DNA of 64,000 bases from Methanobacteriota archaeon (GCA_002728565.1 PBUX01000064.1:29529-93528), one strand, 5' to 3'; positions 2,505 to 47,479 are shown, counted from the stretch's first letter. The notes: generated by a model from the sequence alone, not told the origin. Program-made: numbers and translations.

Positions 2505-4649
<2,145 letters not shown>

Positions 4650-6206: not shown

Positions 6207-8648
6207 GTGGAAACGATGAAGACATTTAGTGTGCTATCAGCGATGCTCGGGGTCATACTCGTTTCTCTAGGAGACCAGTATCCGGAGACTACACGGGCTG
6301 ATCTCCTTGCCTCCGTAATCGAACAAGGTGCAGCCTCAAGTAATGATGTGATCCAGCAGTATTGCGTGCGTTGTCACAATGACAGTGCATTGCGGGGGAA
6401 TATGACTCTGGAGCAGTTCGACTTGGCTAACGCTGAGGACAATCCAGAGCTGACTGAGAAAATGATCAGTAAGGTCCGAGCCGGTATGATGCCGCCACCG
6501 GGTGCTAGGCGTCCGGCGGGAGACACACTCAGAGTTCTAGCTGAAGAACTTGAGTTACATATGGATGGATTCGCTGCACGCAGTCCCAACCCAGGCGGCC
6601 GAACCTTCCAGCGTCTTAATCGGTCGGAATATGAGAGAGCGGTCTTCGATTTGCTTGGCCTTGAAGTTGATGCTGGAGCATATCTGCCGCTGGACACCAA
6701 GAGCGAAAATTTCGACAACATTGCTGATGTACAGCTTCTGTCGCCAACATTACTTGATGCCTACCTGAATGCGGCAGCAGATATCAGCCGCCTCGCGTTG
6801 GGGGATCCCAATGCAAGACCAGCTGAGCACACCTACAACGTCTCCGGCTACCGCTCTCAGACAGAACGGGTCCCTGGTGCACCATTTGGTACGCGAGGAG
6901 GTGTCTCCGTCGTGCATACGTTCCCAGCAGACGGAGAGTACATTTTCCGGATCGCTTTTGAACATACGACGACCGGTGACGGTTTCGTTGGTCAGATCAT
7001 AAGATTCGAGCAGGTCGAAGTCTCTGTGAATGGCTCACGAGTTGCGCTATTGGATCTGGACCAATGGATGCGCATATCCGATCCCGAGGGGATTTCAATG
7101 CGAACTGACCCAATCTTTGTGCGTGCTGGTCCGCAACGTGTGACTGCTGCTTTCATCCGAAAAACAGAAGGACCAGTCGAGGACCTCATGTCCCCACATG
7201 ACTGGTCTCTTGCTGATCGTCATACTGGTATCAGTGGTTATGGTTTGACTCTTCTGCCACATGTTCGCGATCTGGTCATTTCAGGTCCGAACAAGGTTAC
7301 TGGCGTCTCTGAATCGCCGATTAGGCAGAATATTTTTACCTGTCGTCCCACTTTGGCTGATGAGGCGCATCCTTGCGCTGAGGAGATTATCTCCGGACTA
7401 GCCAGACAAGCATACCGCAGACCGCTCAATGAGCGGGATCTTGAGTTCTTAATGTCGTTTTACGAGGAAGGAGCTAGTGGTGGCTTCGAGATAGGGATTC
7501 GTACCGCACTCCAAGCAATTCTAGCAAGTCCTCACTTCGTATTCCGTTTCGAAGAAGCTCCCCCGAACGTGCAGCCGGGGGAAAGCTATCGAATTAGTGA
7601 TGTCGATTTGGCATCACGACTTTCTTTCTTCCTATGGGGAACTGCTCCTGACCCTGAGCTACTAGGAGTTGCTGAGCGAGGGGAACTCTCTGATCCGGAA
7701 GAGCTTGAGAATCAAGTGCTTAGGATGTTGAGTGACAGGCGTGCTGAGTCTCTTGGCCCGAGGTTCGCGGGGCAGTGGCTTCGCTTACAGGACCTTGATA
7801 AGGTCCATCCTGATCAATTCTGGTTCCCTGATTTCGATCAACAGCTAGCAGAAGCAATGCGGCAAGAGACAGAGCTGTTGTTCAACTATTTGGTAAGTGA
7901 GAACAGGAGTATTTTAGACCTCTATTCAGCGGACTACACATTCGTGAACGAGCGTTTGGCTCGGCACTATAGTATTCCAGGCGTTGTCGGTGATCATTTC
8001 CGTCGAATCGTATATCCAGATGATCAGAGGAGAGGAGTGTTTGGGCATGGCAGTGTCCTCACACTTACCTCCCACGCGAATCGCACATCACCTGTGCTTC
8101 GAGGGAAGTGGGTGATGGAGGTTCTTCTTGGATCGCCGCCACCACCACCTCCACCAGGCATTCCGGACCTTGAAGAAACTGAAAGCTCAGAAGCGGGAAG
8201 GATACTGACTACTCGAGAACGAATGGAAGCTCATCGAACAAACCCGACATGTAACTCGTGTCACAGGTTTATTGACCCAATTGGTCTCGCACTCGATAAC
8301 TTTGATGTCACGGGCCGGTGGCGGATACGAGAGAATGGTGCACCCCTCGACACGAGAGGTGAACTCTATGATGGGACACCTGTTTCGAATCCGACTGAGC
8401 TGAAGGATGCCCTTTTGAAGCGGCCAATACCTCTGATTCGAACATTTACTGAGAATTTGATGGCGTACGCCCTGGGAAGAAGGGTAGAATACTATGATCA
8501 GCCGACTGTGCGATCGATAGCCCGGGCTGCTGCTACAGAGGGATACAAAATATCCGCTTTCATACTTGGGGTGGTTGAAAGCGATGCGTTTCAGGTTCAG
8601 CAAGTGGCAAACGTAGTCGACAATCAGTTGCAGGACCTGCCAAATTAG
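6207..8648 (+). CDS. DUF1592/DUF1595/DUF1587/DUF1588/DUF1585 'Planctomycete cytochrome c' (PSCyt/PSD) protein, copy A; two CxxCH motifs
   Basis: 813 aa with a Sec signal peptide. CVRCH near the N-terminus and CNSCH near the C-terminus. Poly-Pro tract (PPPPPPP). About 65-70% identical to the paralog at 12483-14942. Confidence 0.85.
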   Translation: METMKTFSVLSAMLGVILVSLGDQYPETTRADLLASVIEQGAASSNDVIQQYCVRCHNDSALRGNMTLEQFDLANAEDNPELTEKMISKVRAGMMPPPGARRPAGDTLRVLAEELELHMDGFAARSPNPGGRTFQRLNRSEYERAVFDLLGLEVDAGAYLPLDTKSENFDNIADVQLLSPTLLDAYLNAAADISRLALGDPNARPAEHTYNVSGYRSQTERVPGAPFGTRGGVSVVHTFPADGEYIFRIAFEHTTTGDGFVGQIIRFEQVEVSVNGSRVALLDLDQWMRISDPEGISMRTDPIFVRAGPQRVTAAFIRKTEGPVEDLMSPHDWSLADRHTGISGYGLTLLPHVRDLVISGPNKVTGVSESPIRQNIFTCRPTLADEAHPCAEEIISGLARQAYRRPLNERDLEFLMSFYEEGASGGFEIGIRTALQAILASPHFVFRFEEAPPNVQPGESYRISDVDLASRLSFFLWGTAPDPELLGVAERGELSDPEELENQVLRMLSDRRAESLGPRFAGQWLRLQDLDKVHPDQFWFPDFDQQLAEAMRQETELLFNYLVSENRSILDLYSADYTFVNERLARHYSIPGVVGDHFRRIVYPDDQRRGVFGHGSVLTLTSHANRTSPVLRGKWVMEVLLGSPPPPPPPGIPDLEETESSEAGRILTTRERMEAHRTNPTCNSCHRFIDPIGLALDNFDVTGRWRIRENGAPLDTRGELYDGTPVSNPTELKDALLKRPIPLIRTFTENLMAYALGRRVEYYDQPTVRSIARAAATEGYKISAFILGVVESDAFQVQQVANVVDNQLQDLPN

Positions 8649-8667
8649 GTATGAGGAGAAGAGCTAT

Positions 8668-10080
8668 ATGAATTTTGTCACGGGAAAGCAGATACCGCGC
8701 CGAACATTTGTGAAAGGTGTTGGTGCTTCAATGGCCCTACCTTTTCTGGACGCGATGATCCCAGCGGGGAGAGTGTGGTCGAAGGCATTGCCAGAGGCAG
8801 ATCCAACCCGTGTGATTGCAATTGAGATGGTCCACGGAGCCGCCGGATGTAACGAGTGGGGTGCCACACAGAACTTATGGTCTCCTGCTCAGGTTGGGCG
8901 TGACTTTGACCTAACACCAAGCGCGCTTAGCCCGCTCGAGTCTTTCCGCGACTATTTGACGATTATCAGTAATACTGATGTTAAGATGGCTGAAGCATTC
9001 GAGCCGCCTGAGATAGGGGGTGACCACTTCCGATCAAGTGCAGTCTATCTCACGCAATCTCACCCCAAGCAAACCCGAGGCTCAGATCTCTATGCTGGAA
9101 CATCTTTTGATCAACTGTGTGCGCAGCGATTCGGTCAAGAGACATCGATTCCGTCAATGCAGCTGTGTATTGAACCCGTAGATCAATCTGGTGGGTGTGC
9201 TTATGGATACGCTTGTGCCTATACGGATTCGATAAGCTGGGCATCGCCGAGTGAACCACTCCCGATGATCCGGGATCCTCGCGTGGCGTTTGAAATGCTA
9301 TTCGGGGCAGGTGGGACTCCGGAAGAACGTGCAGCTCGCAGAAAGACAAATAAGAGTATACTTGATTGGATTACAGAAGAAATTGCTTTTCTTAGGAAAG
9401 ACCTAGGACCCACAGATCACGCTAGGCTGGACCGCTATCTGGACAACGTCCGCGAATTGGAACGACGTATCCAAGCAATTGAAGCCCAGAACAGAAGTGG
9501 AGAATCTCGCGAGCTACCTGAAGCTCCTGCGGGTGTGCCTGACTCTTTCGAAGAGCACGTCAAGCTGATGTTTGACCTTCAGGCTCTTGCTTTTGCATCA
9601 GATGTCACCCGTGTTTTTTCCTTCAAGACCGGTCGAGACGCCTCAGGTCGTGTCTACCCAGAGAGCGGCACTGATCGTCCGTTCCATGGAGCTTCGCACC
9701 ACGGAGGCCGTGAGGAGGCAATTCTTGAGTTCTTCAAGATCAATAAGTACCACACGAGCCTACTTCCATATCTCTTGAACAACCTTGCGAGCATTGAAGA
9801 AGCCGACGGTAATCTGCTGGACAACACGATGATTATTTATGGATCACCGATGGCGGACGGAAATCTTCACAACCATCGGCGCTGTCCACTGATTGTTCTC
9901 GGAGGTGCAGGAGGACACAACCCTGGAAATCTCCACTTAAAGGCTCCAGACGGGACTCCAATGGCCAACGTGATGTTGAGCTTACTCCATGATCTTGGGG
10001 TTGATGACTTGGAGAACTTCGGGGACAGCAGTGGCGAGTTCTCATTATCGATGCCAGTGACTTTTTCTACTAACAGCTGA
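8668..10080 (+). CDS. DUF1552 (HxxSHH) protein, Tat-exported, copy A
   Basis: Twin-arginine motif RRTFVKG and 'FHGASHHGGREEA'. This is the canonical partner of DUF1592 proteins. Paralog at 14970-16388. Confidence 0.85.
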   Translation: MNFVTGKQIPRRTFVKGVGASMALPFLDAMIPAGRVWSKALPEADPTRVIAIEMVHGAAGCNEWGATQNLWSPAQVGRDFDLTPSALSPLESFRDYLTIISNTDVKMAEAFEPPEIGGDHFRSSAVYLTQSHPKQTRGSDLYAGTSFDQLCAQRFGQETSIPSMQLCIEPVDQSGGCAYGYACAYTDSISWASPSEPLPMIRDPRVAFEMLFGAGGTPEERAARRKTNKSILDWITEEIAFLRKDLGPTDHARLDRYLDNVRELERRIQAIEAQNRSGESRELPEAPAGVPDSFEEHVKLMFDLQALAFASDVTRVFSFKTGRDASGRVYPESGTDRPFHGASHHGGREEAILEFFKINKYHTSLLPYLLNNLASIEEADGNLLDNTMIIYGSPMADGNLHNHRRCPLIVLGGAGGHNPGNLHLKAPDGTPMANVMLSLLHDLGVDDLENFGDSSGEFSLSMPVTFSTNS

Positions 10081-10090
10081 GTAGAGAGCA

Positions 10091-11881
10091 TTGATAGGCC
10101 GTGAGGTGAGTCTTAGGGTTTTGGGCGTATTATGCTTCAGCCTGCTAATTCTTGCAGGTAAGCCCTTAGATTCACCGGTTGCCGATGCGGCAATGAATGG
10201 GGATCTAGACGAGGTTCGCCTGCTCTTGAGTCGTGGTGAAGATGTAAACGCTGCCCACGCAGATGGTATGACCGCACTGCATTGGGCTGCAGAAAACGCG
10301 CATACAGAAATGAGTTCGTTGCTTGTTTCAGCTGGTGCAAACCTTGAGGCGGTAACGCGGATAGGCGGTTACACGCCTCTCCATTTGGCGACGAGGAAAG
10401 GTTCTAGAGGAGTCGCCTTGCACCTCCTTGAGGCAGGTGCTGATCCACGAGCTGAAACTGAGACTGGGAACGTCACCCCGCTCCACTTCGCTGCAGCCGC
10501 TGGAGACGTGGGGTTAACGTCTTCTGTAATAGCGCATGGGGTGGATGTAGACGTACGTGAATCGACTTGGGGCCAAACTCCTTTAATTTTTGCGTCTTCA
10601 GCTGGCCATCTGGATGTCGTGCGTGTGTTGCTCTCGAATGGAGCTGATGCTTCACTCACCACGAAGGTTGTCGACATTCCTGCCCTAGATGAGGTAGACC
10701 GAACAGCGCGCAGAGTTCGTAACGAAATGCTGGAGGCCTTCAAGTCTGCCGCGATGGGAGGGCCAGGTTGGCGACCAGAGCCTAGCCAGGTGCGCGCAGC
10801 AGTTCAGGCAGCACAGCAGGTCCAGCGCTCCCTGACAAGCGTATCGGATGCACCAGAGCGGGAAGAGCAACCTGGTGCTCAGTTGGAAGTCCCATTGGGT
10901 TACACGGAGCTGGTAGGTAGGCAGGGCGGGCTTACACCGCTACTCCATGCAGTACGCGAAGGTCACGTCGATTTAGCACTTGCTCTTGTGGATTTCGGGG
11001 CGGATATCAATCAGGTAAGTGAAGGAGACCGTACTAGTCCAATCCTGATGGCAACAATAAACGGACACTTTGATTTAGCACTGCTGCTTCTTGATCGCGG
11101 CGCGGACCCGACGCTTGCTAGTGACGCTGGTGCAACACCACTCTTTTCGTCGCTGAACACACACTGGGCGCCCAAATCCCGGTATCCTCAACAGCACGCG
11201 TATCGTCAGCAAGATGCGACTTACCTAGATGTGATGAAGAGGTTCTTAGAGGCTGGTGTAGACCCGAACGTCAGGCTCAGGAAGCACATCTGGTACATGT
11301 CTTACACTTTCGACCTACTCCGAGTAAACACGATTGGTGCAACTCCTTTCTGGCGTGCAGCTTACGCTACGGATGTTGATGCGATGAAACTTCTTGTGGA
11401 GTACGGGGCGGATTACGGAGTTCCAACACTGAAACCACCTGGACGCGGACGAGGTGGTGCTAGTTCGAGCGAAGATCCTTCGGGGCTAGCAGCTATTCCT
11501 GATGGTGGCCCAGGAGTATTCCCGATCCACGCTGCAACTGGCGTTGGGTATGGAGAGGGATATGCAGGCAATTCTCATCGGCATGTCCCAGACGGCTGGC
11601 TACCTGCGGTTAGATACTTGGTCGAGGAACTAGGAGCAGATGTAAATGCTAGAGACCATAATGGATACAGCCCAGTTCATCATGCAGCAGCTCGCGGTGA
11701 CAACGAACTTATCCATTACCTAGTTCAGCAAGGTGCTGATGTGACGTTTATTAGCCGTCGAGGGCAGACAACAGTTGATATGGCGAACGGCCCACAGCAA
11801 CGGATCAGTCCATTTCCAGAAACGATCTCGTTGCTGGAAAGCCTGGGTGCGAAGAATAACCACAATTGTTTGTCTTGCTGA
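10091..11881 (+). CDS. Secreted ankyrin-repeat protein, copy A (C-terminal ...LESLGAKNNHNCLSC)
   Basis: Signal peptide. Multiple ANK repeats (…GMTALHWAAENAH…, …YTPLHLATRKG…, …NGYSPVHHAAARGD…). Paralog at 16391-18175. Confidence 0.8.
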   Translation: MIGREVSLRVLGVLCFSLLILAGKPLDSPVADAAMNGDLDEVRLLLSRGEDVNAAHADGMTALHWAAENAHTEMSSLLVSAGANLEAVTRIGGYTPLHLATRKGSRGVALHLLEAGADPRAETETGNVTPLHFAAAAGDVGLTSSVIAHGVDVDVRESTWGQTPLIFASSAGHLDVVRVLLSNGADASLTTKVVDIPALDEVDRTARRVRNEMLEAFKSAAMGGPGWRPEPSQVRAAVQAAQQVQRSLTSVSDAPEREEQPGAQLEVPLGYTELVGRQGGLTPLLHAVREGHVDLALALVDFGADINQVSEGDRTSPILMATINGHFDLALLLLDRGADPTLASDAGATPLFSSLNTHWAPKSRYPQQHAYRQQDATYLDVMKRFLEAGVDPNVRLRKHIWYMSYTFDLLRVNTIGATPFWRAAYATDVDAMKLLVEYGADYGVPTLKPPGRGRGGASSSEDPSGLAAIPDGGPGVFPIHAATGVGYGEGYAGNSHRHVPDGWLPAVRYLVEELGADVNARDHNGYSPVHHAAARGDNELIHYLVQQGADVTFISRRGQTTVDMANGPQQRISPFPETISLLESLGAKNNHNCLSC

Positions 11882-11897
11882 TCAACTAGTTAGTCTA

Positions 11898-12290
11898 CTA
11901 GCTCGAATCTCCGCCGCTAGACAGTTCTTCTAAGATACGCTCAAAAATTAAGCGCTGTTCTTCATCGATACTGATCACAAGCGTGATTTCGTCATATTCG
12001 AGCTGGCTCATCTCGTGTTCAGTGAGGATTTCTTGAATTCTTTCCTGAAAACGGGCTCGTATACGTTCACGCTCTTGAAGTTCGTGCGTGCGGCCCAGTT
12101 CCGCGTGAAAATCGTCCCGCTGCTCGCTGATTGCTATATGAGCTTCAACGAATACGGTCATGCGCTCCGTCGTTACTTGAGGTAGTTCCTGGGTTTGTGC
12201 TACCAATGGCAAGGGCTTCACCAGCAAGAGCGTTGTCATCGAGACAATGACAGCAGTGACATTAAGAGCTTTCCAGACTTCAGTTTTCAC
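11898..12290 (-). CDS. Hypothetical small secreted protein (helical, acidic)
   Basis: 130 aa ORF with an N-terminal signal-like hydrophobic segment. It lies between the two cassettes on the opposite strand. Confidence 0.4.
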   Translation of the reverse strand: MKTEVWKALNVTAVIVSMTTLLLVKPLPLVAQTQELPQVTTERMTVFVEAHIAISEQRDDFHAELGRTHELQERERIRARFQERIQEILTEHEMSQLEYDEITLVISIDEEQRLIFERILEELSSGGDSS

Positions 12291-12482
12291 TCTATCTCCT
12301 CCGAGTTCACTCGCAGGTTGGGTACCTAAGGATGATACTGCCGACCCCCTTTCTTGCCAAAAATCTGGTAACGTACTGGTTCGCTATTTGCAGTAGTTAT
12401 TGTGGCTGATGAGGGCTCTCCTACCTATAATACATTTGGAAAATCCCACGCTAACAAGCAAGACCCCTCTCAGAGGACATGT

Positions 12483-14942
12483 ATGAAGACCTTAGCCGGC
12501 GTCTCTGCGGTTTTGGGTTTTACCCTAATGCTCTTCGGTGGCGAAGCCTATGTGGCCCATTCGCCCCAAGAGTCATCACCCGAGTTTGTGCACCTGAGCT
12601 TGGGGGGACAAACAGCGTCAACGGATACGGATATCGATCATACTGAGGTTGTTGGACAGTACTGTGTACGGTGCCATAACGATCGCAGAATGACTGGCAA
12701 CATGTCACTTGAGCAGTTTGATGCTGCTAATCCGGAACGGAACGCAGAATTATCAGAAAAGATGATCCATAAGCTCCGGGCGGAGATGATGCCGCCACCG
12801 GGTGCGCGGCGTCCTGCCGGAGACACACTCTTATCGCTTGTTCTCGCCCTTGAATCCAGCATGGATGCTGCAGCGGTAGCGAACCCGAACCCTGGGGGAC
12901 GCAGTTTTCAGAGGCTGAACCAGGCTGAGTATGGGCGCTCTATTCTTGAATTGCTCGACTTGGAGATAGATGCTGGTGATTACCTCCCACTCGATACTAA
13001 GAGTGCGAATTTCGACAATATCGCTGATGCTCAGATGCTTTCACCGATGTTGCTTGATACGTACTTCCGAGCTGCAGCTGAGATTAGCCGACTAGCTGTC
13101 GGAGATCCAAATGTACTTCCCTCCTCGAAGACTTACACAAATGGCGGGTACGTTTCCCAATGGGATCGAGTAGAGGGTGCACCGTTCGGGACGCGTGGTG
13201 GAATCTCTGCCGTGCACACTTTCCCGGCAGACGGTGACTACGTGTTCAAGATGGCCTTTGAACATACCACGACCGGGGGATTTTTCGGCGGCACTTCTAG
13301 GGACGAACAGATCGAGATCTCGATTGATGGTGAGCGCGTTGCGCTCTATTGGGTTGACCGCTTCATGAACGTCTCAGATCCGAACGGCGCAAATATGCAA
13401 AGTGAGCCGATCTTTGTCCGCGCGGGCCCACGCAGGGTGAGCGCAGCTTTCTTGAGACAAGCTGAGGGGCCCAGAGAGGATGTGGTTTCACCTCATGAGT
13501 GGTCGCTGAGTGATAGGCAGATTGGGGTGAGCGGTTATGGAGTCACAGCACTTGCTCATCTGAAAGACCTAGCTATCACAGGTCCCTACGAAGCTACTGG
13601 TGTTTCAGAGACTCCGAGTCGGAGCCGAGTATTCAGTTGTCGGCCGCTTACTCTGGAGGAAGCACCCGCGTGTGCGGAGGAAATTATATCTCGACTGGGT
13701 CCGCAGGCTTTTCGCCGGTCACTAACACAGGACGACCTTGATGGGTTGATGTCTTTCTACGAACTAGGATTTGCTGACGGAGGGTTCGAGCTTGGAGTGC
13801 GGACAGCGATAGAAGCCATACTGGCTAGTCCCGACTTCGTGTTCAGGCTTGAAGAAGCACCCAGTGGGGTGAAGGCAGGGGAAAGCTACGCAGTAAGCGA
13901 CACTGATTTGGCATCTCGACTTTCATTTTTCCTTTGGGGCGCTCCGCCAGATGCGGAGTTGTTGGTCGCGGCCGAAAAGGGCGAATTGTCTGACGAGAGT
14001 GGGCTAACTGCCCAGGTCAGACGTATGCTCCAAGATTCTCGGGCAGAAGCTCTAGGGACACGGTTCGCGAGTCAGTGGCTCCGTTTGGAGGACTTAGACA
14101 AAGTCCACCCCGACCGACTGTTCTTCCCAGATTTTTACCAACAGCTTGCCGATGCGATGCTCAGGGAGACAGAACTGTTCTTCAATAGTTTGGTTCGTGA
14201 AGACCGAAGCGCGCTTGAGTTGTATTCTGCAGACTACACGTACTTGAACGAGGCTTTGGCAAAACACTACGGTATTCCGGGAATTACGGGTACCCATTTT
14301 CGTAAGGTCCAATACCCGGACGCTACCCGCCGCGGAATCCTAGGGCACGGAAGTATTCTCACACTTACCTCACACGCAAATCGGACTTCTCCGGTGCTAC
14401 GAGGCAAATGGGTGTTAGAGGTATTGTTAGGAGCTCCGCCGCCACCACCACCACCAGGTATCCCTGATCTAGACGAGACAGAAGCTTTTGAAGCTGGACG
14501 GCTATTAACTACCCGTGAGCGTATGGAACTGCATCGCTCAAGCCCATCTTGCAACTCGTGCCATCGTTTCATGGATCCCATAGGCCTCGCACTCGATAAT
14601 TACGATGTGACAGGCAGATGGCGGATTCGAGAAAATGGTATGCCACTTGATACCAAGGGCGAATTTTATGATGGGACTATGATTGAGACTCCTTCAGCAC
14701 TTCAGGAAGTTCTCGTAAAGCGGCCGATCCCACTTGTCAGAACTTTCACAGAAAATCTCATGGCATATGCTCTTGGCCGCAGAGTAGAGTATTATGATCA
14801 ACCGACTATCAGGTCTATTACTGCGCAGGCTGAAGAAGACGATTATCGTATGTCATCGTTCATACTTGGAGTTGTGCTCAGTGATGCCTTTAGGATGCAG
14901 CAGGTGAACGTGGTTGCAGATGATGGAAGCGGGATCAACTAG
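12483..14942 (+). CDS. DUF1592 'Planctomycete cytochrome c' protein, copy B; two CxxCH motifs
   Basis: Start taken at the internal ATG (MKTLAGVSAVLGFTLMLFGG signal peptide). The ORF extends to 12402 upstream. CVRCH and CNSCH motifs and a P7 tract are conserved with copy A. Confidence 0.85.
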   Translation: MKTLAGVSAVLGFTLMLFGGEAYVAHSPQESSPEFVHLSLGGQTASTDTDIDHTEVVGQYCVRCHNDRRMTGNMSLEQFDAANPERNAELSEKMIHKLRAEMMPPPGARRPAGDTLLSLVLALESSMDAAAVANPNPGGRSFQRLNQAEYGRSILELLDLEIDAGDYLPLDTKSANFDNIADAQMLSPMLLDTYFRAAAEISRLAVGDPNVLPSSKTYTNGGYVSQWDRVEGAPFGTRGGISAVHTFPADGDYVFKMAFEHTTTGGFFGGTSRDEQIEISIDGERVALYWVDRFMNVSDPNGANMQSEPIFVRAGPRRVSAAFLRQAEGPREDVVSPHEWSLSDRQIGVSGYGVTALAHLKDLAITGPYEATGVSETPSRSRVFSCRPLTLEEAPACAEEIISRLGPQAFRRSLTQDDLDGLMSFYELGFADGGFELGVRTAIEAILASPDFVFRLEEAPSGVKAGESYAVSDTDLASRLSFFLWGAPPDAELLVAAEKGELSDESGLTAQVRRMLQDSRAEALGTRFASQWLRLEDLDKVHPDRLFFPDFYQQLADAMLRETELFFNSLVREDRSALELYSADYTYLNEALAKHYGIPGITGTHFRKVQYPDATRRGILGHGSILTLTSHANRTSPVLRGKWVLEVLLGAPPPPPPPGIPDLDETEAFEAGRLLTTRERMELHRSSPSCNSCHRFMDPIGLALDNYDVTGRWRIRENGMPLDTKGEFYDGTMIETPSALQEVLVKRPIPLVRTFTENLMAYALGRRVEYYDQPTIRSITAQAEEDDYRMSSFILGVVLSDAFRMQQVNVVADDGSGIN

Positions 14943-14969
14943 AGATAGCTACTAGGAGAAGCTCGGATT

Positions 14970-16388
14970 ATGGAATTCATCACCGGTAAACACATGCCCC
15001 GTCGTTCGTTCGTTCGAGGGATGGGTGCAACGGTGGCTCTGCCATTTCTAGAAGCGATGATCCCAGCTGGACGTATTTGGTCTAGCGCTAACGAAGATGC
15101 TTTACCTACTCGGCTAGTCGCGATTGAGATGGTCCATGGGGCCGCCGGATGTAACGAATGGGGTGCAACGCAAAACCTCTGGTCTCCGGAGGAAGTCGGC
15201 CGTGACTTTGATCTCACGCCAACCTCGCTTAGCTCACTCGAGCCATTCAGAGATTATCTCACGATCATTAGCAACACCGATGTCAGGATGGCAGAAGCTT
15301 TCCAGCCTTATGAAATTGGTGGGGACCATTTTCGCTCAAGTGCTGTTTTCCTGACTCAGTCTCACCCGAAGCAAACGGAAGGTTCAGACGTATACGTTGG
15401 AACTTCTCTTGATCAACTCTACGCTCAGCGTTTTGGGCAGGACACACCGATCCCTTCCATGCAACTTTGCATTGAGAATATCAATCAATCGGGTGGGTGT
15501 GCGTACGGGTATACGTGCGTCTACACGGACTCAATCAGTTGGGCATCGCCTACCGAGCCATTGCCGGTTATTCGCGATCCAAGGGTCGCATTCGACCAAT
15601 TGTTTGGTGCTGGAGGAACTGTTGAGGAGCGTGCACTTCGTCGCAGGACAAATAAGAGTATACTCGATTGGATCACTGGTCGTGTGGCCCAACTGCGAAG
15701 GGAGCTTGGCCCCAACGATATTCAGAGACTCGACAGGTACCTAGACAACGTTCGGGAAATCGAACGTCGTATCCAAAGAATTGAAGCTCAGAATATGAGT
15801 GGTGAGTCTCGAGATTTACCGGAGGCACCGGCCGGGGTACCGGACTCGTTTGAAGAGCACACCCGGCTGATGTTTGACTTGCAAGCACTCGCCTTCTCGT
15901 CAGATGTGACTAGGGTATTCTCGCTGAAGATGGGCCGTGACTCATCCGCACGGGTTTTCGCAGAGAGTGGCACAGATCGTCCGTTCCATCCCGCATCACA
16001 CCATGGCGGACGAGAGGAAGCAATTCTTGATTTTGCTAAGATCAACCGATACCACGTAAGCATGCTCCCATACTTCCTTGAGAAGCTTCAGAGCATACAA
16101 GAAGGTGACACCCATCTTCTAGACAAGACGATGATCATTTATGGATCACCGATGGCAGACGGGAATCTCCATAACCATCGTCGTGCTCCCCTCTTTGTTG
16201 CGGGTGGGGCGAATGGAAGGTTGGAAGGGGGGCTCCATCTTAAGACGCCGGACGGAACCCCGATGGCGAATGCTATGCTAAGTCTTGCTCATACGTTGGG
16301 CATGGATGATATGGATGATTTCGGTGACAGTACTGGAGAGCTGTCCTTATCAATGCCTGCCAGCACCCTTACTAGCGCAGGGTCATAA
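14970..16388 (+). CDS. DUF1552 (HxxSHH) protein, Tat-exported, copy B
   Basis: RRSFVRG Tat motif and 'FHPASHHGGREEA'. Confidence 0.85.
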   Translation: MEFITGKHMPRRSFVRGMGATVALPFLEAMIPAGRIWSSANEDALPTRLVAIEMVHGAAGCNEWGATQNLWSPEEVGRDFDLTPTSLSSLEPFRDYLTIISNTDVRMAEAFQPYEIGGDHFRSSAVFLTQSHPKQTEGSDVYVGTSLDQLYAQRFGQDTPIPSMQLCIENINQSGGCAYGYTCVYTDSISWASPTEPLPVIRDPRVAFDQLFGAGGTVEERALRRRTNKSILDWITGRVAQLRRELGPNDIQRLDRYLDNVREIERRIQRIEAQNMSGESRDLPEAPAGVPDSFEEHTRLMFDLQALAFSSDVTRVFSLKMGRDSSARVFAESGTDRPFHPASHHGGREEAILDFAKINRYHVSMLPYFLEKLQSIQEGDTHLLDKTMIIYGSPMADGNLHNHRRAPLFVAGGANGRLEGGLHLKTPDGTPMANAMLSLAHTLGMDDMDDFGDSTGELSLSMPASTLTSAGS

Positions 16389-16390
16389 GG

Positions 16391-18175
16391 ATGAGTACGC
16401 ACTTCTTAAGATCCTTAAGTGTATTGTGTCTTAGTGCACTGTTATCGGGCGCAGTACCTCCTGAGTCGCCGGTGGCGGATGCAGCCATGCGAGCCGACTT
16501 GGATAAGGTGCGGATACTTCTTAAGGGTGGAGCGGATGTAAACGTTGCTCAAGGCGACGGAATGACTGCACTTCACTGGTCAGCTGAGAATCGCAGTGTC
16601 GAGATGGCTGCGATGCTTATCTATGCTGGTGCGAATGTGGAGGCTGTTACCCGGATCGGTGGCTACACACCACTGCATCTGGCCTCACGGTCTGGTAGTG
16701 CTGCGATCGTTCAGGAGCTGCTCGAAGCTGGTGCAAACCCAACGGTCGCGAGTAGCGCAGGTGGAGCCACACCCCTTCACTTCGCAGCATCAGCATCAAG
16801 TAGGGGATCAGTGATCTCGTTACTTGACCATGGTGCCGAGATTGATGCTCGTGAGAGTGCTTGGGAACAGACACCGCTCATGTTTGCTGCCTCACTTGGT
16901 CGTACTGAGATCGTGGAGTTATTGCTCAGCCGAGGAGCGGACGTATCCGTTACCACTTCTGCTGTCTACTTGCCGGCGCTTCAGGATGAGGACCGGGCTG
17001 CTCGACAGCGCAGGGACAAAGTGCTCGATGGATTCCGTGCTCAGAATGTCTCGGGATCTGAGTCTTGGAGACCAAGCCCGACAGAGGTACAGGCAGCAAT
17101 GGAGTCTTCTAGGATAGACCCAGAAGAATCAGCTAATCCTGAAGAAGAGGGAGAAGACGCCTACAACGAACAGGTCGGTGTCCCTGGTGGGAACTCTTAC
17201 GCGGATCTCGTAGGTACGATGGGTGGGACCACTGCTTTGATTCATGCTGTTCGAGAAGGACATCTCGAAACAGTGGGTGTGCTTTTGGATCATGGTGCGG
17301 ACATCAATCAACCTAGTGCAGGTGACCAGACGACACCGTTACTGAGTGCAATAATTAACGGCTACTTTGATCTTGCTCTTGAGTTGCTTAAGCATGGCGC
17401 TGACCCGAGACTCGCGAGTACGGCAGGTACGACACCACTTTTCTCCGTAATTAATACGAGATGGGCACCAAAGGCTCGTTATCCACAGCAGGAAGCCCAC
17501 AAGCAGCAACAGGCAACACACTTAGAAGTGATGGAGGCCCTGCTCCGATCTGGAGCTAACCCGAACGCGCGGTTGACTAAGCACCTGTGGTTTATGGAAT
17601 ACACATTCAGCCACTTGGGCATCGACACCTCCGGAGCTACTCCGTTCTGGCGTGCGACCCATGCACTTGATGTACCGGCGATGAAGCTTCTAGTTGAATA
17701 TGGTGCCGATCCTGGTATTCCCACGACCAAGGGGCGGGATCGTCGCTCACGCGGGGGTGGAGGAGAAGATCCCTCTGGACTGCCCCCTGTCCCATTTGGT
17801 GGGCCAGCTGTCCACCCGATTCATGTAGCTGCAGGTCATGGATACGGCACTGGTTACGCGGGTTACTCACATAGGCATGCGCCAGATGCATGGCTTACGA
17901 CTGTGAAGTATCTCGTTGAAGAGCACGGAGCTGACGTCAATGCGCGAGATCACAACGGATATTCCCCAGTCCATAACGCTGCATCTCGCGGTGATATTGA
18001 GATGATTCGCTACCTTGTGGACAAGGGAGCAGACGTTATGGTGGTGAGCCGCCGGGGGCAGACAACCGTCGATATGGCAAACGGCCCACAGCAACGGATC
18101 CAGCCGTTCCCGGAAGCGATGTCATTGCTTGAAAGCCTGGGTGCAAAAAACAATCACAATTGTGTGAGTTGCTGA
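16391..18175 (+). CDS. Secreted ankyrin-repeat protein, copy B (C-terminal ...LESLGAKNNHNCVSC)
   Basis: Signal peptide. ANK repeats. Collinear with copy A. Confidence 0.8.
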   Translation: MSTHFLRSLSVLCLSALLSGAVPPESPVADAAMRADLDKVRILLKGGADVNVAQGDGMTALHWSAENRSVEMAAMLIYAGANVEAVTRIGGYTPLHLASRSGSAAIVQELLEAGANPTVASSAGGATPLHFAASASSRGSVISLLDHGAEIDARESAWEQTPLMFAASLGRTEIVELLLSRGADVSVTTSAVYLPALQDEDRAARQRRDKVLDGFRAQNVSGSESWRPSPTEVQAAMESSRIDPEESANPEEEGEDAYNEQVGVPGGNSYADLVGTMGGTTALIHAVREGHLETVGVLLDHGADINQPSAGDQTTPLLSAIINGYFDLALELLKHGADPRLASTAGTTPLFSVINTRWAPKARYPQQEAHKQQQATHLEVMEALLRSGANPNARLTKHLWFMEYTFSHLGIDTSGATPFWRATHALDVPAMKLLVEYGADPGIPTTKGRDRRSRGGGGEDPSGLPPVPFGGPAVHPIHVAAGHGYGTGYAGYSHRHAPDAWLTTVKYLVEEHGADVNARDHNGYSPVHNAASRGDIEMIRYLVDKGADVMVVSRRGQTTVDMANGPQQRIQPFPEAMSLLESLGAKNNHNCVSC

Positions 18176-28982: not shown

Positions 28983-29714
28983 GTGACTCTAAACCTTCTT
29001 ATTCAGATTGAACCGCCTGGTGGGCTAACGGAGGCGCTTAGCCAGAGCCCGCTGTTGGCGATTGGGGCTATGTTTATCGCAGGGGTTCTTACCAGCCTAA
29101 CCCCCTGTGTTTACCCGATGATACCGATCACATCAGCTGTGATCGCTGGGACTGCAAGTGAGGGTCAGTCGAAGGCGCGGACGGTTGGCCTTACACTCAC
29201 CTACGCTGTTGGTCTGGCAATGCTGTATGCGATGCTTGGAGCAGTTGCTGGAGTCACCGGACAGCTTTTCGGGACGGTCAGTGCTAGTCCCTGGGCTCGT
29301 CTGGCCATAGGAAACTTCCTCGTAATTTTCGCTTTGGCGATGCTTGATGTTTTACCAATTCCTGTACCTCGGAAGTTGCTGGAGCGTGCTAGTCAGAGTG
29401 AAGGAGGATCCTACGGAGCAGTCTTTGTTATGGGTGCGATGTCTGGAGTTGTGGCAGCTCCGTGTGGAGCCCCAGCGTTTGCAGTTGCGCTTACCTGGGT
29501 GGCAGCGACTGGAGCGGGACTGATGGGTTTCGTTTACCTGTTCGTATTCTCATTCGGGATGACAGCGCTACTGATTGTGGTTGGCTTATTTTCTGGGACC
29601 TTGGCGCTTCTTCCGAATTCAGGAGCGTGGATGGTGTGGATAAAACGAGCCGCCGCTGTCATCATGATTGGGATGGCTGAATATTACTTTGTGCTAGCCG
29701 GCTACAACCTGTAG
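28983..29714 (+). CDS. ccdA: Cytochrome c-type biogenesis protein CcdA (DsbD-family thiol:disulfide transporter)
   Basis: Six TM helices with two membrane-embedded cysteines (TPCVYP…, APCGAP…). Confidence 0.85.
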   Translation: MTLNLLIQIEPPGGLTEALSQSPLLAIGAMFIAGVLTSLTPCVYPMIPITSAVIAGTASEGQSKARTVGLTLTYAVGLAMLYAMLGAVAGVTGQLFGTVSASPWARLAIGNFLVIFALAMLDVLPIPVPRKLLERASQSEGGSYGAVFVMGAMSGVVAAPCGAPAFAVALTWVAATGAGLMGFVYLFVFSFGMTALLIVVGLFSGTLALLPNSGAWMVWIKRAAAVIMIGMAEYYFVLAGYNL

Positions 29715-29722: not shown

Positions 29723-30244
29723 ATGAGAGCAAATATCTCCATATTGCGACTGGCTATAATTGCAATAATTGCTGCGCCGGGACCGATTTGGGCACAGGTT
29801 GCCGGAGAGGGCTCTGTATCTCTTCCATTTGGGAGCGTGGCTCCTGGAGCAGCCCTGCAGGATCTGGAGGGCAACTCTGTCGATCTGATCGATTACATCA
29901 AAGGAAAACCGGCTCTCATCGAATTCTGGGCGAGTTGGTGCGAGCAGTGCGATGTGCTCCAACCACAGCTCGATCGTATCCAGGCAGAGCATGGTGAAGA
30001 GATTAAGATCGTTGCAGTGGCTGTTGGTGTCGCCCAAAGTTTGCGACGCGTGAAACGGCATTTCGAAGATCATAATCCTGGCTACCCATTCTTGTACGAT
30101 GCGCGCGGGGCAGCTGTTAGAGCGTATAATGCTCAGACCACATCGATCGTTGTAATGCTCGACAGTGACGGGAAGGTTGCTTACACCGGTGTCGGAACTT
30201 CCCAGGACTTGGTTGGGGCGGCTCAGGAGCTACTTAGACGTTAG
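29723..30244 (+). CDS. Periplasmic TlpA/ResA-like thiol:disulfide oxidoreductase
   Basis: Signal peptide plus a 'WASWCEQC' CxxC motif. Immediately downstream of ccdA. Confidence 0.8.
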   Translation: MRANISILRLAIIAIIAAPGPIWAQVAGEGSVSLPFGSVAPGAALQDLEGNSVDLIDYIKGKPALIEFWASWCEQCDVLQPQLDRIQAEHGEEIKIVAVAVGVAQSLRRVKRHFEDHNPGYPFLYDARGAAVRAYNAQTTSIVVMLDSDGKVAYTGVGTSQDLVGAAQELLRR

Positions 30245-37800: not shown

Positions 37801-38361
37801 ATGACCACCAAAGACGAACTTCGAAAACTCCTTATCGAACGCTCCGTCCGCCTTGGTGATTTTACCCTGGCCAGTGGAGCGAAGTCTGACTACTACATTG
37901 ATGCCCGTCGGACTACGATGTCAGCGGAAGGGCAGAGGCTCGTAGGCAGGGTCGCTTATGCGGCAATTCAAGACCATGGTCTTGATCCGACTCATGTGGG
38001 CGGCCTGACTATGGGGGCAGATCCTATCGCTTACGCGATTGCGCATGTAAGCGCCCTAGAGGGTTGGATCATCGATGGTTTTTCCGTCCGAAAAAGCGCC
38101 AAAGACCACGGAACTGGGCAACGTATAGAGGGCGGGCTCCCAAAAGATGCTCGGGCGCTTATGGTAGAGGATACAATGACAACAGGACTGAGCACGTTAA
38201 AAGCCATCGATGTTGTTCGAGCCCATGGCGCTGAGGTTTTGGGGGTTATCACCCTAGTGAACCGGTCCGAAGATGCCGCAGCCCTCTACAATGCTCAGGG
38301 GTTACCACTCATCTCGTTGTACACAGGAAAAGAGCTTTTAGAGGCGGCTCAGTCGAGTTAA
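37801..38361 (+). CDS. pyrE: Orotate phosphoribosyltransferase
   Basis: Type I PRTase fold with PRPP-binding 'LMVEDTMTTG'. Confidence 0.9.
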   Translation: MTTKDELRKLLIERSVRLGDFTLASGAKSDYYIDARRTTMSAEGQRLVGRVAYAAIQDHGLDPTHVGGLTMGADPIAYAIAHVSALEGWIIDGFSVRKSAKDHGTGQRIEGGLPKDARALMVEDTMTTGLSTLKAIDVVRAHGAEVLGVITLVNRSEDAAALYNAQGLPLISLYTGKELLEAAQSS

Positions 38362-39464
38362 TCAATCAACCTGAGTGGCATCACTAGGCATAAGTAATCC
38401 GCCGCGTCCTCTCCTGCCGGTTCTATTGTCGCCGCCCTCTCTGGTGCCCTAAAGGCCAACTTCACTTCTTCTGAGGGTATGTGACGGAGAACCTCCAGTA
38501 AGTAGTTGGCGTTGAAGCCGATCTCTAATTCCTCTCCTTCATATCCAACCTCCATCTCATCATGTCCCTCTCCTAGGTCGGGGGTTAGGACACTGAGATG
38601 AACCCGGCCGGGTTCGAAACGCATACGAATCCGGTGGGTCTGGTCTGAGGCAACAACTGCCATTCTGCGGACAGCCGAAGCAAGAGCTTTTTTCTCTATA
38701 AAGGCCAGCTTGTCATTGTCTTTGGGTATAACCTGCTCGTAATTCGGATACGAGCCCTCGATGAGGCGCGTGTATATCTCAGTATTGTCGGCCCTAAACC
38801 CTAGGTGGTTTCCACTACGTGCCACCTCAAGTTGATCCTCATCCTGAAACAACCGTTGCACTTGAGTTAACGCTGCTGGTGGGACTATAAAATCTGCGGA
38901 AGTCGTTCCTGTAGCTTCAACCTTGACACTCATGCGTGCCAGTCTGTGTCCATTAGTCGCCACCATTTTCATCTCACCATCTCTCAGTTCCCACAGAACA
39001 CCGTTCAAGATAGGCCTGCTTTCTTCGGTGGATACAGCAAAAGATGTATGGTGAATCAGTGCATTGAGGTCTTTTCCAGTTACGGAAATACCCTCTGAGA
39101 AATCGACCTCTGCTAGGGTTGGAAACTCATCTGCCGGCAAGCCATTTAATTTGAATTGACTTGCTCCGCATATCAGTTCGATCTGATCTCCGCGGGTTGT
39201 AATTTCGACCGGTTGATCTGGTAACTCTCGAGTGATCTCTTGAAGTTTTTTACCTGGTGCCGTAAGGCTGCCGGGTGTCTTTACGTCAGCGAGAACTTTG
39301 ACTCGCACAGCAACATCTAAGTCTGTACCACTCATCCATACGCCATCCTCAGAAGCCTCAAAGAGGATGTTCGATAGAACTGGAAGAGTAGTCTTCGATG
39401 GAATGCTAGCTGAGACCGCAGCAAGACCTTTGTGAAGGTTTTGCCGAGTGATGGTGAAATTCAT
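38358..39464 (-). CDS. dnaN: DNA polymerase III beta sliding clamp
   Basis: 368 aa with a three-domain clamp signature. Convergent with pyrE and downstream of dnaA. Confidence 0.95.
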   Translation of the reverse strand: MNFTITRQNLHKGLAAVSASIPSKTTLPVLSNILFEASEDGVWMSGTDLDVAVRVKVLADVKTPGSLTAPGKKLQEITRELPDQPVEITTRGDQIELICGASQFKLNGLPADEFPTLAEVDFSEGISVTGKDLNALIHHTSFAVSTEESRPILNGVLWELRDGEMKMVATNGHRLARMSVKVEATGTTSADFIVPPAALTQVQRLFQDEDQLEVARSGNHLGFRADNTEIYTRLIEGSYPNYEQVIPKDNDKLAFIEKKALASAVRRMAVVASDQTHRIRMRFEPGRVHLSVLTPDLGEGHDEMEVGYEGEELEIGFNANYLLEVLRHIPSEEVKLAFRAPERAATIEPAGEDAADYLCLVMPLRLID

Positions 39465-39545
39465 CGGGATGATGCTCCTGATGGTCTTTGCCGTGCGACC
39501 TTAAGGTCAACAAGATTTCTCACATAACCTAGATACTATCTCTTA

Positions 39546-39770
39546 TTACTTACAAAAAACATAGCCGTAGTAGGTGTTGTGGTTTTGTGGAATCTTGTAC
39601 CCAATAAGACTCCGTTTCCTTATGCCCTGTCTGTAAAAACGATCTATTTCGCTCCGATAAACTTTTGGTGGAAAAATGTTTAAAGTTCTCAAGTGGTAGA
39701 AATTTCTGTTTTTTGACCGTGGAAAAACGAGGGGTTTTCCACACTTGTTCACATTAGCCGTGGAAAACTC
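39546..39770. other. Putative oriC: AT-rich dnaA-dnaN intergenic region with at least five DnaA-box-like 9-mers
   Basis: TTTTCCACA (39735-39743), CGTGGAAAA (39718-39726 and 39759-39767), TGGTGGAAAAA (39666-39676), TTGTGGAAT (39585-39593), together with A/T tracts that could serve as DNA-unwinding elements. Confidence 0.5.
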
Positions 39771-41205
39771 TAGCATGGTCTGTTTTTAGTTCCGCAATTA
39801 CCTCCTCGACCCGGTCCCGGAAGGCCTCGTCGCCATCCATCCTAGATGCCACCTTTCGAATCGAATACAAAACAGTGGAGTGGTCTCGTCCTCCGTAAAG
39901 CATCCCGATACCCTGAAGCGGGGTCCCGAGTAGCTCGCGTACCACGTACATCGCTACGTGACGAGCCTCGGCTATGTTTTTAGACCGTGACTTCGAAGAG
40001 AGGGCTTCGGGGCGCACACGCCACTGACTGGCAACGAGCTGGGTGATTCGATCTGGAGAAGCAACCGGCCCTCTTTGTCTCCTCTCCAGCCTTCTGAGAG
40101 CCAGAACGCGCTTAGCAAAAGAAAGGGTTATCTCTTCGTTCCATACCGAGGAAACAGCGAGAAGCTTAAGGACCGCACCCTCTAGCTCTCTAACTGAAGA
40201 CGAACAGGCATGGGCAATGTAGTCGATGACGTCTCCGGCGAGATCTAACCCTTCGTCCTCCGCCTTGGTGCGCAGGATCGCCATGCGAGTCTCGTAATCA
40301 GGCGGGCGTAAATCCACCACGAGACCCCACTCAAACCGTGAGACTAGGCGCTGTTCCAAGCCCTCCATCTCACGAGGAGGCCTGTCGCTTGTGACCACTA
40401 TCTGGCCTTGGGCGTCGTACAGCGCGTTGAAGGTATGGAAGAACTCTTCTTGGGTGCTCTCCTTTCCCCTAAGAAAATGGATGTCGTCGACGAGCAGTAA
40501 GTCGATTTGCCGATAACGAGCGCGAAAACGATCCGTGGCGCCCTTGCGTATAGCCTGGATTAGTTCGTTGGTGAACTGCTCGGAGGATACATAGGCCACG
40601 CGCCGGCTTGGGTCGATCCTTAGCGATGCATGTCCGATGGCGTGCATGAGGTGTGTTTTGCCCAAGCCTACTCCACCGTAGAGGAATAGCGGGTTGTAGA
40701 GCTGGCCCGGGTTGTCCGCAACTGCGCGCCCGGCAGCATCCGCCAGCTGATTGTTGCCACCCACCACGAATCGGTCGAAGGTGTATCGACTAAAGAGGCC
40801 GGGGTCTGCCGGCGATGAAGATGGCGGACTAGCCGGGCTTGGTGCCGGGCGCCTGCTCACTGAGCCGCTTTGCAGGGTCGACCCCGCTTCTTTTCCAGCG
40901 AAGATGTCCGTAGATGGCTCGACGAGGACCGCCGGCAGGACGCCCCCTTCTTCGGAAGGACCGCTACTAACGGACAGGAGGACTTTGTAACCTAGGACGC
41001 TTGCTCCCGCTTCCTTGATCAGGTCTCCGTATTTGTCTTCCAGCCACTCTGCGTGGAAGGGGCTTTGCGTCTCGATCACAAGCGCGTCTGCCGAAACAGC
41101 GACACACCTAGCTCCAGCAATCCAGGTTTGGAAGGCGTGCTCCGGCACGAGCGCGCGGACTTGTTCAAGAATTGCCGTCCAGACGTCTTGTGTGGTCAGC
41201 TCCAT
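39754..41205 (-). CDS. dnaA: Chromosomal replication initiator protein DnaA
   Basis: AAA+ Walker A 'GGVGLGKTHL' and a C-terminal DnaA box-binding domain. Confidence 0.95.
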   Translation of the reverse strand: MELTTQDVWTAILEQVRALVPEHAFQTWIAGARCVAVSADALVIETQSPFHAEWLEDKYGDLIKEAGASVLGYKVLLSVSSGPSEEGGVLPAVLVEPSTDIFAGKEAGSTLQSGSVSRRPAPSPASPPSSSPADPGLFSRYTFDRFVVGGNNQLADAAGRAVADNPGQLYNPLFLYGGVGLGKTHLMHAIGHASLRIDPSRRVAYVSSEQFTNELIQAIRKGATDRFRARYRQIDLLLVDDIHFLRGKESTQEEFFHTFNALYDAQGQIVVTSDRPPREMEGLEQRLVSRFEWGLVVDLRPPDYETRMAILRTKAEDEGLDLAGDVIDYIAHACSSSVRELEGAVLKLLAVSSVWNEEITLSFAKRVLALRRLERRQRGPVASPDRITQLVASQWRVRPEALSSKSRSKNIAEARHVAMYVVRELLGTPLQGIGMLYGGRDHSTVLYSIRKVASRMDGDEAFRDRVEEVIAELKTDHARVFHG

Positions 41206-41512
41206 GAAGCCTTCCTTGCGCCGATCTCATCCCTGCCGCTCGTTAGGCGGGAGGCTTCGAAGCGGGATCGGCTGAAGGGCATGTTGGGCTGTTGTTCCGG
41301 TCTTAAGAGGGGCCGCTATACAGACTGCTCAATAGCGAGGGGGGTCGAACCTACAGAGCCTTTCCATAAATGTCAAAATGCCCGAAAAGGCCCCGAATCA
41401 AAGGGGTTAGAGCTATTTAAGGGGCGATCGGCGTTGACCGTTTTGGGGCGCCCCGACTATCTTGGTAAGCTCGTCGATAACCGCAGTACAACCAAGGATC
41501 GGGCTGGCAGGA

Positions 41513-41662: not shown

Positions 41663-41670
41663 GCTCTACG

Positions 41671-44053: not shown

Positions 44054-44079
44054 GCTGCGCACGCGGACTTTGTGCTGAG

Positions 44080-47451: not shown

Positions 47452-47479
47452 GGAGGAGGGGTTAGGGCGCCAGCCTGCC

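Follow-up and report, generated by a model that had tools for sequence, protein, structure and literature searches.

A stretch of 64,000 nucleotides (nt) from an assembly labelled as a Methanobacteriota archaeon (GCA_002728565.1, PBUX01000064.1:29529-93528; hereafter the window) carries, between positions 6,207 and 18,175, two copies of a three-gene cassette, A and B, encoding a DUF1592-type protein (C; A1 and B1), a DUF1552 protein (H; A2 and B2) and an ankyrin-repeat protein (K; A3 and B3). The DUF1592-DUF1552 pair itself is already known and uncharacterised, having been reported as a conserved gene pair of unknown function in Verrucomicrobia (PMC5615132), with domains first described from Rhodopirellula baltica; the ankyrin gene, on the other hand, looks like a previously unnoticed third partner, as the three genes are found together in numerous bacteria from soil and the sea. 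We found that this partner defines a large subfamily of the pair, though not the whole family, and that the two triads of the window are, judging from their sequences, ancient paralogues. As to function, our tentative reading, held at somewhat less than even odds, is that the triad forms a periplasmic three-subunit redox metalloenzyme.

The conservation of the triad was investigated in a scan seeded by the ankyrin alignment alone, with one genome per species, which returned at least 596 loci, the best 80 of which were taken as a census. These belong to Gemmatimonadota (Longimicrobiales, Gemmatimonadales and Palauibacter), Acidobacteriota (Vicinamibacterales) and some metagenome-assembled genomes (MAGs) labelled as Gammaproteobacteria. 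According to tblastn, 97 complete same-strand triads in the order C-H-K were present in 76 of the 80 loci, with median gaps of 36 nt between C and H and 81 nt between H and K, and 20 loci contained two or three triads in tandem. Incomplete cases were mostly cut by contig or locus ends, and so were two of the four loci devoid of a triad (L016 and L081). There were three apparently real exceptions: a K gene lacking the pair in the 7.6 kb upstream of it (L054), a K-less pair directly upstream of a full triad (L061), and a C and an H gene 5 kb apart (L060). The six-gene layout was also found in independent gene calls with precomputed Pfam annotation from other assemblies. Cultured carriers of the triad include L075, labelled Gemmatimonas phototrophica.

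The association extends to more divergent members of the family. In a second scan, of metagenome sequences and seeded with a distant DUF1552 protein about 43% identical to that of the window, an ankyrin gene was found downstream (C-H-K) or upstream (K-C-H) of the pair in nearly every locus with enough flanking sequence, and a DUF1592-DUF1552 pair on a Novosphingobium megaplasmid (Novosphingobium sp. KACC 22771, NZ_CP117882.1, about 943.5-948.2 kb) also has an adjacent ankyrin gene. The single pair looked at in Planctomyces sp. SH-PL62 has no adjacent ankyrin gene, its downstream gene being a DUF1080 gene, and no ankyrin gene was present near the single pair of Chondrinema litorale or beside that of Sphingobium herbicidovorans (plasmid pMSHV, L171 4385-8531), where genes for cytochrome c and cytochrome b come after the pair. 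Upstream of this Sphingobium pair, a TonB-dependent receptor and an AraC regulator are encoded. The original prediction had presented the ankyrin gene as a conserved third member and had named a lack of synteny in other genomes as the observation that would count against it; synteny was instead found in the 76 census loci, in the distant clade and in Novosphingobium. The claim therefore stands for a large subfamily, but not as a universal feature of DUF1592/DUF1552 pairs.

Neighbour-joining trees constructed for each protein placed the A and B copies of the window in separate clades, each of which holds the same-position copies from other Gemmatimonadota genomes, the B type grouping with the copy located downstream of a DUF4168 gene in L007, L033, L038, L040, L057 and L061. 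Distances between paralogues of the same locus were 0.29-0.43 for C, 0.17-0.34 for H and 0.39-0.42 for K, and the ten loci with all three proteins of both triads complete showed no recent duplicates. Within the window, full-length protein identity between cassettes was 65% for A1/B1, 77% for A2/B2 and 60% for A3/B3, and the cassette DNA is collinear at about 67% identity, with a longest exact word in common of 21 nt. The trees and distances indicate that the tandem duplication is ancient, its paralogues having been retained across genomes, and that it is no local event. The whole-triad duplication put forward from the window was thus real, and its separate clades and large within-locus distances refine it to ancient paralogy.

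The three proteins have also diversified together. The distance matrices of C, H and K correlated with each other (r = 0.76-0.80), although shared phylogeny contributes to these raw correlations. Among 20 triads in multi-triad loci, the nearest neighbours in other loci agreed for H and K in 17 cases and for C, H and K in 11. When K was shuffled among the triads of one locus, the H-K correlation decreased from 0.76 to a mean of 0.68, and the observed value was reached in 5 of 500 shuffles. Such co-diversification is the pattern expected from specific subunit pairing, and a triad that diversifies as a unit, in the form of ancient and conserved tandem paralogues, argues for specific contacts between its subunits.

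The DUF1592-type proteins A1 and B1 show the Pfam domain order PSCyt1-like, PSD3, PSD5, PSD4 (DUF1592), PSCyt3 and PSD2, of which the last five all exceed their gathering thresholds in canonical order (65.9-152 bits in A1 and 63.8-152.2 bits in B1); the Cytochrome_CBB3 model reached 18.2 bits against a cut-off of 27. Of 95 relatives, 93 contain two CxxCH motifs and the other two look truncated; the residues C53, C56, H57, M94, M95, P96, C682, C685, H686, D690 and P691 (A1 numbering) are invariant in the family. The protein is a putative c-type di-haem cytochrome, and its hydrophobic N-terminus suggests that it is exported. Sequence and profile searches of the PDB with this protein and its alignment identified no related solved structure, and NCBIfam contains no family for either the DUF1592-type protein or DUF1552.

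The second protein of each cassette matches HXXSHH/DUF1552 (PF07586) with 280.3 bits (A2; E 3e-83) and 282.3 bits (B2; E 8e-84) against a 30-bit cut-off. In both copies an RRxFV motif is located at residues 11-15, within an N-terminus of the twin-arginine translocation (Tat) type (PRRTFVKG in A2 and PRRSFVRG in B2, residues 10-17), and HxxSHH at residues 340-345. The RR pair was present in all of the family members examined (108/108), of which 95 have the narrower RRxF[LVI]; DUF1552 carries a Tat export motif, and its export is predicted. An AlphaFold2 model, derived from a shallow alignment of sequences 74-85% identical, had a mean predicted local distance difference test score (pLDDT) of 56 and a predicted template modelling score (pTM) of 0.64, and shows the alpha/beta core fold of the alkaline-phosphatase superfamily, an assignment that a model of such poor quality allows for the fold class only. 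Identity to members of that superfamily was 7-15%. PDB sequence and profile searches with DUF1552 and its alignment gave nothing meaningful, Pfam searched at E <= 10 did not yield even a weak link to sulfatase or DUF1501 models, and hhalign of the DUF1552 alignment with the catalytic domain of Escherichia coli EptA returned a probability of 0.2 and no residue mapping.

Ten residues are universal in DUF1552 (R48, D148, D250, Y257, E265, T314, R315, H340, D385 and H401) and four are nearly so (H120, H297, H344 and H423). In sequence alignments, no nucleophile and metal-ligand set of the alkaline-phosphatase type was recognisable or conserved across divergent DUF1552 proteins. The candidate residues E53, H56 and T103, like D104, are clade-specific; other residues take the place of the first three in the distant clade and in Planctomyces, Chondrinema, Sphingobium and Novosphingobium. 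We infer that DUF1552 is an alkaline-phosphatase-like scaffold with a different, His/Asp-rich site. In the clade of the window (clade 1) the protein has an eight-residue insertion after strand 1, which the distant clade lacks.

Ankyrin repeats were identified by Pfam in A3 (E 2e-56) and B3 (E 4e-66), and more than 120 full-length relatives were found at an identity of at least 60%. The AlphaFold2 model of this protein (pLDDT 85.6, pTM 0.82) is a continuous solenoid with an N-terminal signal-like helix and a helical insertion at about residues 196-253, and Foldseek aligned it with 12-repeat segments of the eukaryotic proteins ankyrin-B and ankyrin-R at template modelling (TM) scores of 0.82-0.84. 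The N-terminus is hydrophobic and of the Sec type according to a hydropathy heuristic. The family-specific invariants are not those of the ankyrin consensus, but loop motifs in the C-terminal half: W-x-P-x-x-RYPQ, YTF-x-x-L, GxGYGEG..HRHxP and DMANGPxQRxxPFPE. The third gene of one triad at L006 (3640-5658) encodes a 672-aa protein without a precomputed Pfam match, the C-terminal half of which is 64% identical to the ankyrin protein of the window, which shows that the N-terminal half of the family is replaceable.

Both A3 and B3 end in C-x-S-C. Among the 120 closest homologues the C-terminus [NS]N-x-x-C-x-x-C-COOH hardly varies, most of 110 locus-derived proteins have it, and a CxxC tail is also found in 32 cluster representatives at 50% identity. 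These were taken from a representative search with the C-terminal half, whose 1563 matches at E <= 1e-30 were swamped by giant multi-repeat ankyrins and served for the tail check only, not as a measure of family size. Residues 593-596 are disordered in the otherwise confident model. The CxxC tail and the DUF1552 insertion occur together in 93 triads, which is effectively one phylogenetic event. Since the ankyrin partners of the distant clade and a few members of the clade of the window have no such tail, it cannot be essential for a mechanism common to the family. Cys61 of DUF1552 was considered as a fixed partner for the tail and discarded, as this position varies among C, S, A and G in the clade. 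In one relative (P0414, 997 aa) the tail is replaced by an extension of about 300 aa ending in an AhpC/TSA-Redoxin (thioredoxin-fold) domain; this domain lacks the active-site cysteines, and the protein was not used as a sign of redox activity of the tail.

The RR motifs of H, the hydrophobic N-termini of C and K, and the CxxCH motifs, which need periplasmic maturation, point to a periplasmic location of the triad. The original prediction of an uncharacterised periplasmic module is supported by the conservation of the triad, and the export signals proposed for it (Sec, Tat and Sec) were recovered by motifs and hydropathy heuristics only. A redox or binding system that depends on haem or metal, as suggested there, is still plausible in view of the conserved CxxCH pair, the His-rich core of DUF1552 and the cytochrome c and b genes of Sphingobium. 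We lean towards redox chemistry because of the conserved haem motifs, the Met-Met-Pro motif, Tat export and the lack of a recognisable hydrolytic set, and also because cytochrome c and b genes replace the ankyrin gene in Sphingobium and a small cytochrome c gene is located near the triads of L001-L005.

In the mechanism that we tentatively propose, the Tat-exported DUF1552 protein would be the catalytic subunit, offering a His/Asp-rich core on an alkaline-phosphatase-like scaffold, and the DUF1592-type protein would act as an electron wire, whose two c-type haems would link the catalytic centre with further electron carriers of the periplasm or membrane, while its non-haem domains probably help to bind the substrate. 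The Sec-exported ankyrin solenoid may be a dedicated scaffold, assembly or substrate-presenting subunit, with conserved finger loops docking onto its partners; this role is suggested by the confident solenoid, the invariant loops of its C-terminal half and the precedent of catalase-associated ankyrins (see below). In the clade of the window the flexible C-terminal Cys-x-x-Cys could form a mobile dithiol/disulfide or metal-binding arm, and the two triads might have been kept side by side because they diverged in specificity.

Several observations weigh against a redox metalloenzyme. Haem attachment to the DUF1592-type protein is a prediction, and its PSCyt1 region scored 21.7 bits in A1 and 21.3 bits in B1, slightly below the 22-bit cut-off. 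The fold assigned to DUF1552 comes from a model with a mean pLDDT of 56, the alkaline-phosphatase fold is typical of hydrolases and transferases, and to our knowledge no redox enzyme is known in this superfamily. Some pairs have no ankyrin gene nearby, and some ankyrin partners have no CxxC tail. The data show the gene content, the conservation of the triad, its ancient duplication, the motifs and the folds of DUF1552 and the ankyrin protein; the physical complex, its redox chemistry and the role of the tail are inferred. Moreover, SusC-like TonB-dependent receptors and SusD-like proteins, each at 17 of the 80 loci, are the neighbours most often found with the triads, and PSCyt genes have been reported to neighbour sulfatases and sometimes to carry carbohydrate-binding modules (PMC5615132).

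These last two points fit a hydrolytic, nutrient-processing role as well, which is the main rival explanation and in our estimation a rather unlikely one. DUF1552 would in that case represent a divergent hydrolase or transferase of phospho- or sulfo-esters, with organic substrates that are imported by SusC/SusD-like TonB-dependent transporters. Substrate binding would be the main task of the DUF1592-type protein, whose haems would have a structural, sensory or vestigial character, and the ankyrin protein would be an adaptor. Besides the SusC/SusD genes (also seen at L006), the sulfatase neighbours and the carbohydrate-binding modules, this explanation is favoured by the alkaline-phosphatase fold and by the peptidases, amidohydrolases and creatininase-like gene that recur close to the triads. 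However, neither the canonical acidic ligand where strand 1 ends nor a nucleophile position is conserved across DUF1552, E53, T103 and D104 being clade-specific, and the profile comparison with EptA gave nothing. Both CxxCH motifs are strongly conserved, and SusC/SusD genes occur at only about one fifth of the loci, many of them phylogenetically related.

A further possibility, quite improbable in our view but in keeping with the nearly invariant, disordered tail, is that the C-terminal cysteines of the ankyrin protein act as a carrier, by which a covalent intermediate, a metal ion or electrons would pass between DUF1552 and the di-haem protein. The ankyrin protein would in this case be a new periplasmic shuttle subunit and DUF1552 an alkaline-phosphatase fold repurposed for redox, neither of which we think probable. 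Comparable in logic are the C-terminal cysteine arm of SoxY, which works with the cytochrome SoxAX and the hydrolase SoxB, and the C-terminal redox tails of thioredoxin reductase and MerA; the combination of a cytochrome, an enzyme with a hydrolase fold and a protein with terminal cysteines runs parallel to the logic of Sox. The DUF1552 insertion that accompanies the tail lies beside strand 1, but the 93 triads sharing both features effectively represent a single event. The tail-less ankyrin partners of the distant clade, together with the few clade members that lost the cysteines, argue against such an arm, and no sulfur-oxidation or other pathway genes recurred in the neighbourhood of the 80 loci. 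If it were correct, it would describe a new three-component periplasmic pathway and provide a first function for the DUF1592/DUF1552 pairs, and perhaps for the DUF1553/DUF1501 pairs.

There is likewise only a slim chance that the ankyrin protein, instead of being a working subunit, inhibits, regulates or chaperones DUF1552 as its cognate partner, in the manner of the periplasmic ankyrin immunity proteins that block a partner enzyme. One-to-one synteny and co-diversification with H are also shown by enzyme-inhibitor pairs, ankyrin solenoids are protein-binding modules, and K is the fastest-evolving of the three proteins, with a within-locus distance of about 0.4 compared to about 0.2 for H. Nevertheless, K is 50-65% identical across phyla and has many invariant loop residues, which makes it more conserved than usual immunity proteins, and DUF1552 shows no sign of a toxin-like role. 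Finally, ankyrin-repeat proteins of symbiont genomes are often read as host-interaction factors, and the best NCBIfam matches of the ankyrin protein are Legionella Ank effectors, all well under their cut-offs, but that these genes are unrelated neighbours or effectors, or that the tandem is a recent duplication or an assembly artefact, is effectively excluded by the presence of 97 triads in 76 loci of Gemmatimonadota, Acidobacteriota and Gammaproteobacteria (with Alphaproteobacteria added by Novosphingobium), by N-termini of the Sec type instead of effector signals, by a cassette DNA identity of only 67% and by the two-cassette layout of the independent assembly L007.

The triad resembles a number of described systems in part. 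With the known DUF1592-DUF1552 pair it shares the Pfam architecture of the first gene and a DUF1552 gene immediately downstream; it differs in its third gene, for an exported ankyrin protein, which belongs to the unit in the window and in hundreds of loci from Gemmatimonadota, Acidobacteriota and Proteobacteria, and in its ancient tandem paralogues. The parallel "planctomycete" pair, formed by PSCyt2/DUF1549-DUF1553 and DUF1501 proteins, similarly places a large exported protein with a cytochrome-like motif beside a twin-arginine protein said to be sulfatase-like, but it consists of other Pfam families, and we know of no ankyrin partner for it. That pairing has been noted before (PMC5615132). 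Members of the alkaline-phosphatase superfamily, such as sulfatases, nucleotide pyrophosphatases and phosphoethanolamine transferases, differ from DUF1552 in the low identity given above, in the lack of a sequence or profile link and in the di-haem protein that accompanies DUF1552.

Periplasmic ankyrins have been reported to interact with and promote haem catalases, as in the case of AnkB and KatB in Pseudomonas and of the ankyrin-katE operon of Leptospira (PMC10294975). In these, an exported bacterial ankyrin is encoded in an operon with a haem protein, much as the ankyrin of the triad accompanies a putative one, but the ankyrin protein described here is far longer (about 595 aa), carries family-specific loops and a CxxC tail, and has DUF1592 and DUF1552 proteins as partners; in the census loci the directly upstream gene is a DUF1552 gene and not a catalase gene. 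The likeness to Sox is limited to the three-part logic of a c-type cytochrome, a metallohydrolase-fold enzyme and a flexible C-terminal cysteine. No component is homologous, the carrier is an ankyrin solenoid and not the immunoglobulin-like fold of SoxY, the tail reads N-N-x-x-C-x-S-C instead of GGCGG, and no sox-like neighbours were found in the 80 loci.

No description was found in open-access papers and preprints of an ankyrin gene that accompanies the pair throughout a large subfamily, of the CxxC tail, of the ancient tandem paralogues, or of an alkaline-phosphatase fold with a non-canonical site for DUF1552, and the word "ankyrin" is absent from PMC5615132. The dedicated ankyrin partner and the alkaline-phosphatase-type fold of DUF1552 offer concrete experimental handles; they do not reveal the function, but turn an abundant and unexplained pair into a better-defined, experimentally approachable three-component system. 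They also call for caution in the annotation of long ankyrin proteins of Gemmatimonadota, Acidobacteriota and some Gammaproteobacteria MAGs, which may be partners of periplasmic enzymes and not "eukaryote-like" effectors.

The features of the cassettes are given in Table 1. Two collinear three-gene cassettes had been predicted from the window, with short or absent intergenic gaps and products roughly 65-70% identical. All six open reading frames (ORFs) were recovered on the plus strand where they had been placed, with the Pfam families expected, the gaps measured 2-27 nt (19 and 10 nt in cassette A, 27 and 2 nt in cassette B), and the identities were those reported above (65, 77 and 60%). The two copies are not directly adjacent, since a minus-strand DUF4168 ORF intervenes. 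For B1 the mechanical ORF opens at a GTG at position 12402; the ATG at 12483 was favoured because similarity to A1 begins there. A promoter and terminator scan of the region returned fewer matches than shuffled sequence, or no more, and was uninformative.

Table 1. Features of the two cassettes and their surroundings in the window (aa, amino acids).
Feature	Position (nt)	Strand	Basis
A1, DUF1592 type, 813 aa	6207-8648	+	ORF call and Pfam
A1 CxxCH motifs	6363-6377, 8250-8264	+	
A2, DUF1552 (HXXSHH), 470 aa	8668-10080	+	ORF call and Pfam
A2 RRTFV	8698-8712	+	
A2 HGASHH	9685-9702	+	
A3, ankyrin-repeat protein, 596 aa	10091-11881	+	ORF call and Pfam
A3 loop motif RYPQQ	11180-11194	+	
A3 loop motif HRH	11576-11584	+	
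A3 terminal CLSC and stop	11867-11881	+	
DUF4168 protein, 130 aa, secreted-looking	11898-12290	-	Pfam, E 1.6e-5
B1, paralogue of A1, 819 aa from ATG	12483-14942	+	ORF call and Pfam
B1 CxxCH motifs	12663-12677, 14550-14564	+	
B2, paralogue of A2, 472 aa	14970-16388	+	ORF call and Pfam
B2 RRSFV	15000-15014	+	
B2 HPASHH	15987-16004	+	
B3, paralogue of A3, 594 aa	16391-18175	+	ORF call and Pfam
B3 terminal CVSC and stop	18161-18175	+	
Sodium:solute symporter, KatG, amidohydrolase	upstream flank of cassettes		
M28 peptidase, CGNR-type regulator, tyrS	downstream flank of cassettes		

No further gene was consistently linked to the triads in the 80 loci, and the triad therefore looks self-contained. 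Apart from the SusC-like and SusD-like genes, recurrent neighbours include an unannotated 240-aa protein (11 loci), a creatininase-like gene (10 loci) and peptidases. DUF4168 homologues were present near the triads in 11 of the 80 loci, occupying the same position between cassettes in L007, L033, L038, L040, L057 and L061. In the Gammaproteobacteria-labelled MAGs of L001-L005, a conserved block made up of a gene of the GSDH type (glucose/sorbosone dehydrogenase-like), a DUF4168 gene, a Zn-ribbon protein and a 133-aa cytochrome c is found about 2.5 kb past the second triad.

Among public sequences, the region is most closely related to that of a Gemmatimonadales MAG (L007, UBA1142), which has both cassettes and the intervening DUF4168 gene at 82-94% protein identity. 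The KatG gene of the window (2526-4649) lies about 1.5 kb upstream of cassette A, an arrangement reminiscent of the known catalase-ankyrin operons; KatG was rejected as a functional partner, as only the window has it upstream of a cassette and other genomes do not show it as a recurrent neighbour of their triads. A replication-origin neighbourhood was identified at 38358-49355, with dnaN and dnaA on the minus strand followed by yidC, mnmE, mnmG, parA and parB on the plus strand, and because the window includes this chromosomal origin neighbourhood the region is regarded as ordinary chromosome. The G+C content of the window is about 0.49-0.54 up to 40 kb and about 0.56-0.60 beyond, the step being located exactly at the origin boundary. 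Another gene pair of the window, 11 kb away from the cassettes, encodes a CcdA/DsbD-type membrane protein (28983-29714) and, after it, a thioredoxin-fold Redoxin protein (29723-30244); pairs of this type feed reducing power to the periplasm for cytochrome c maturation.

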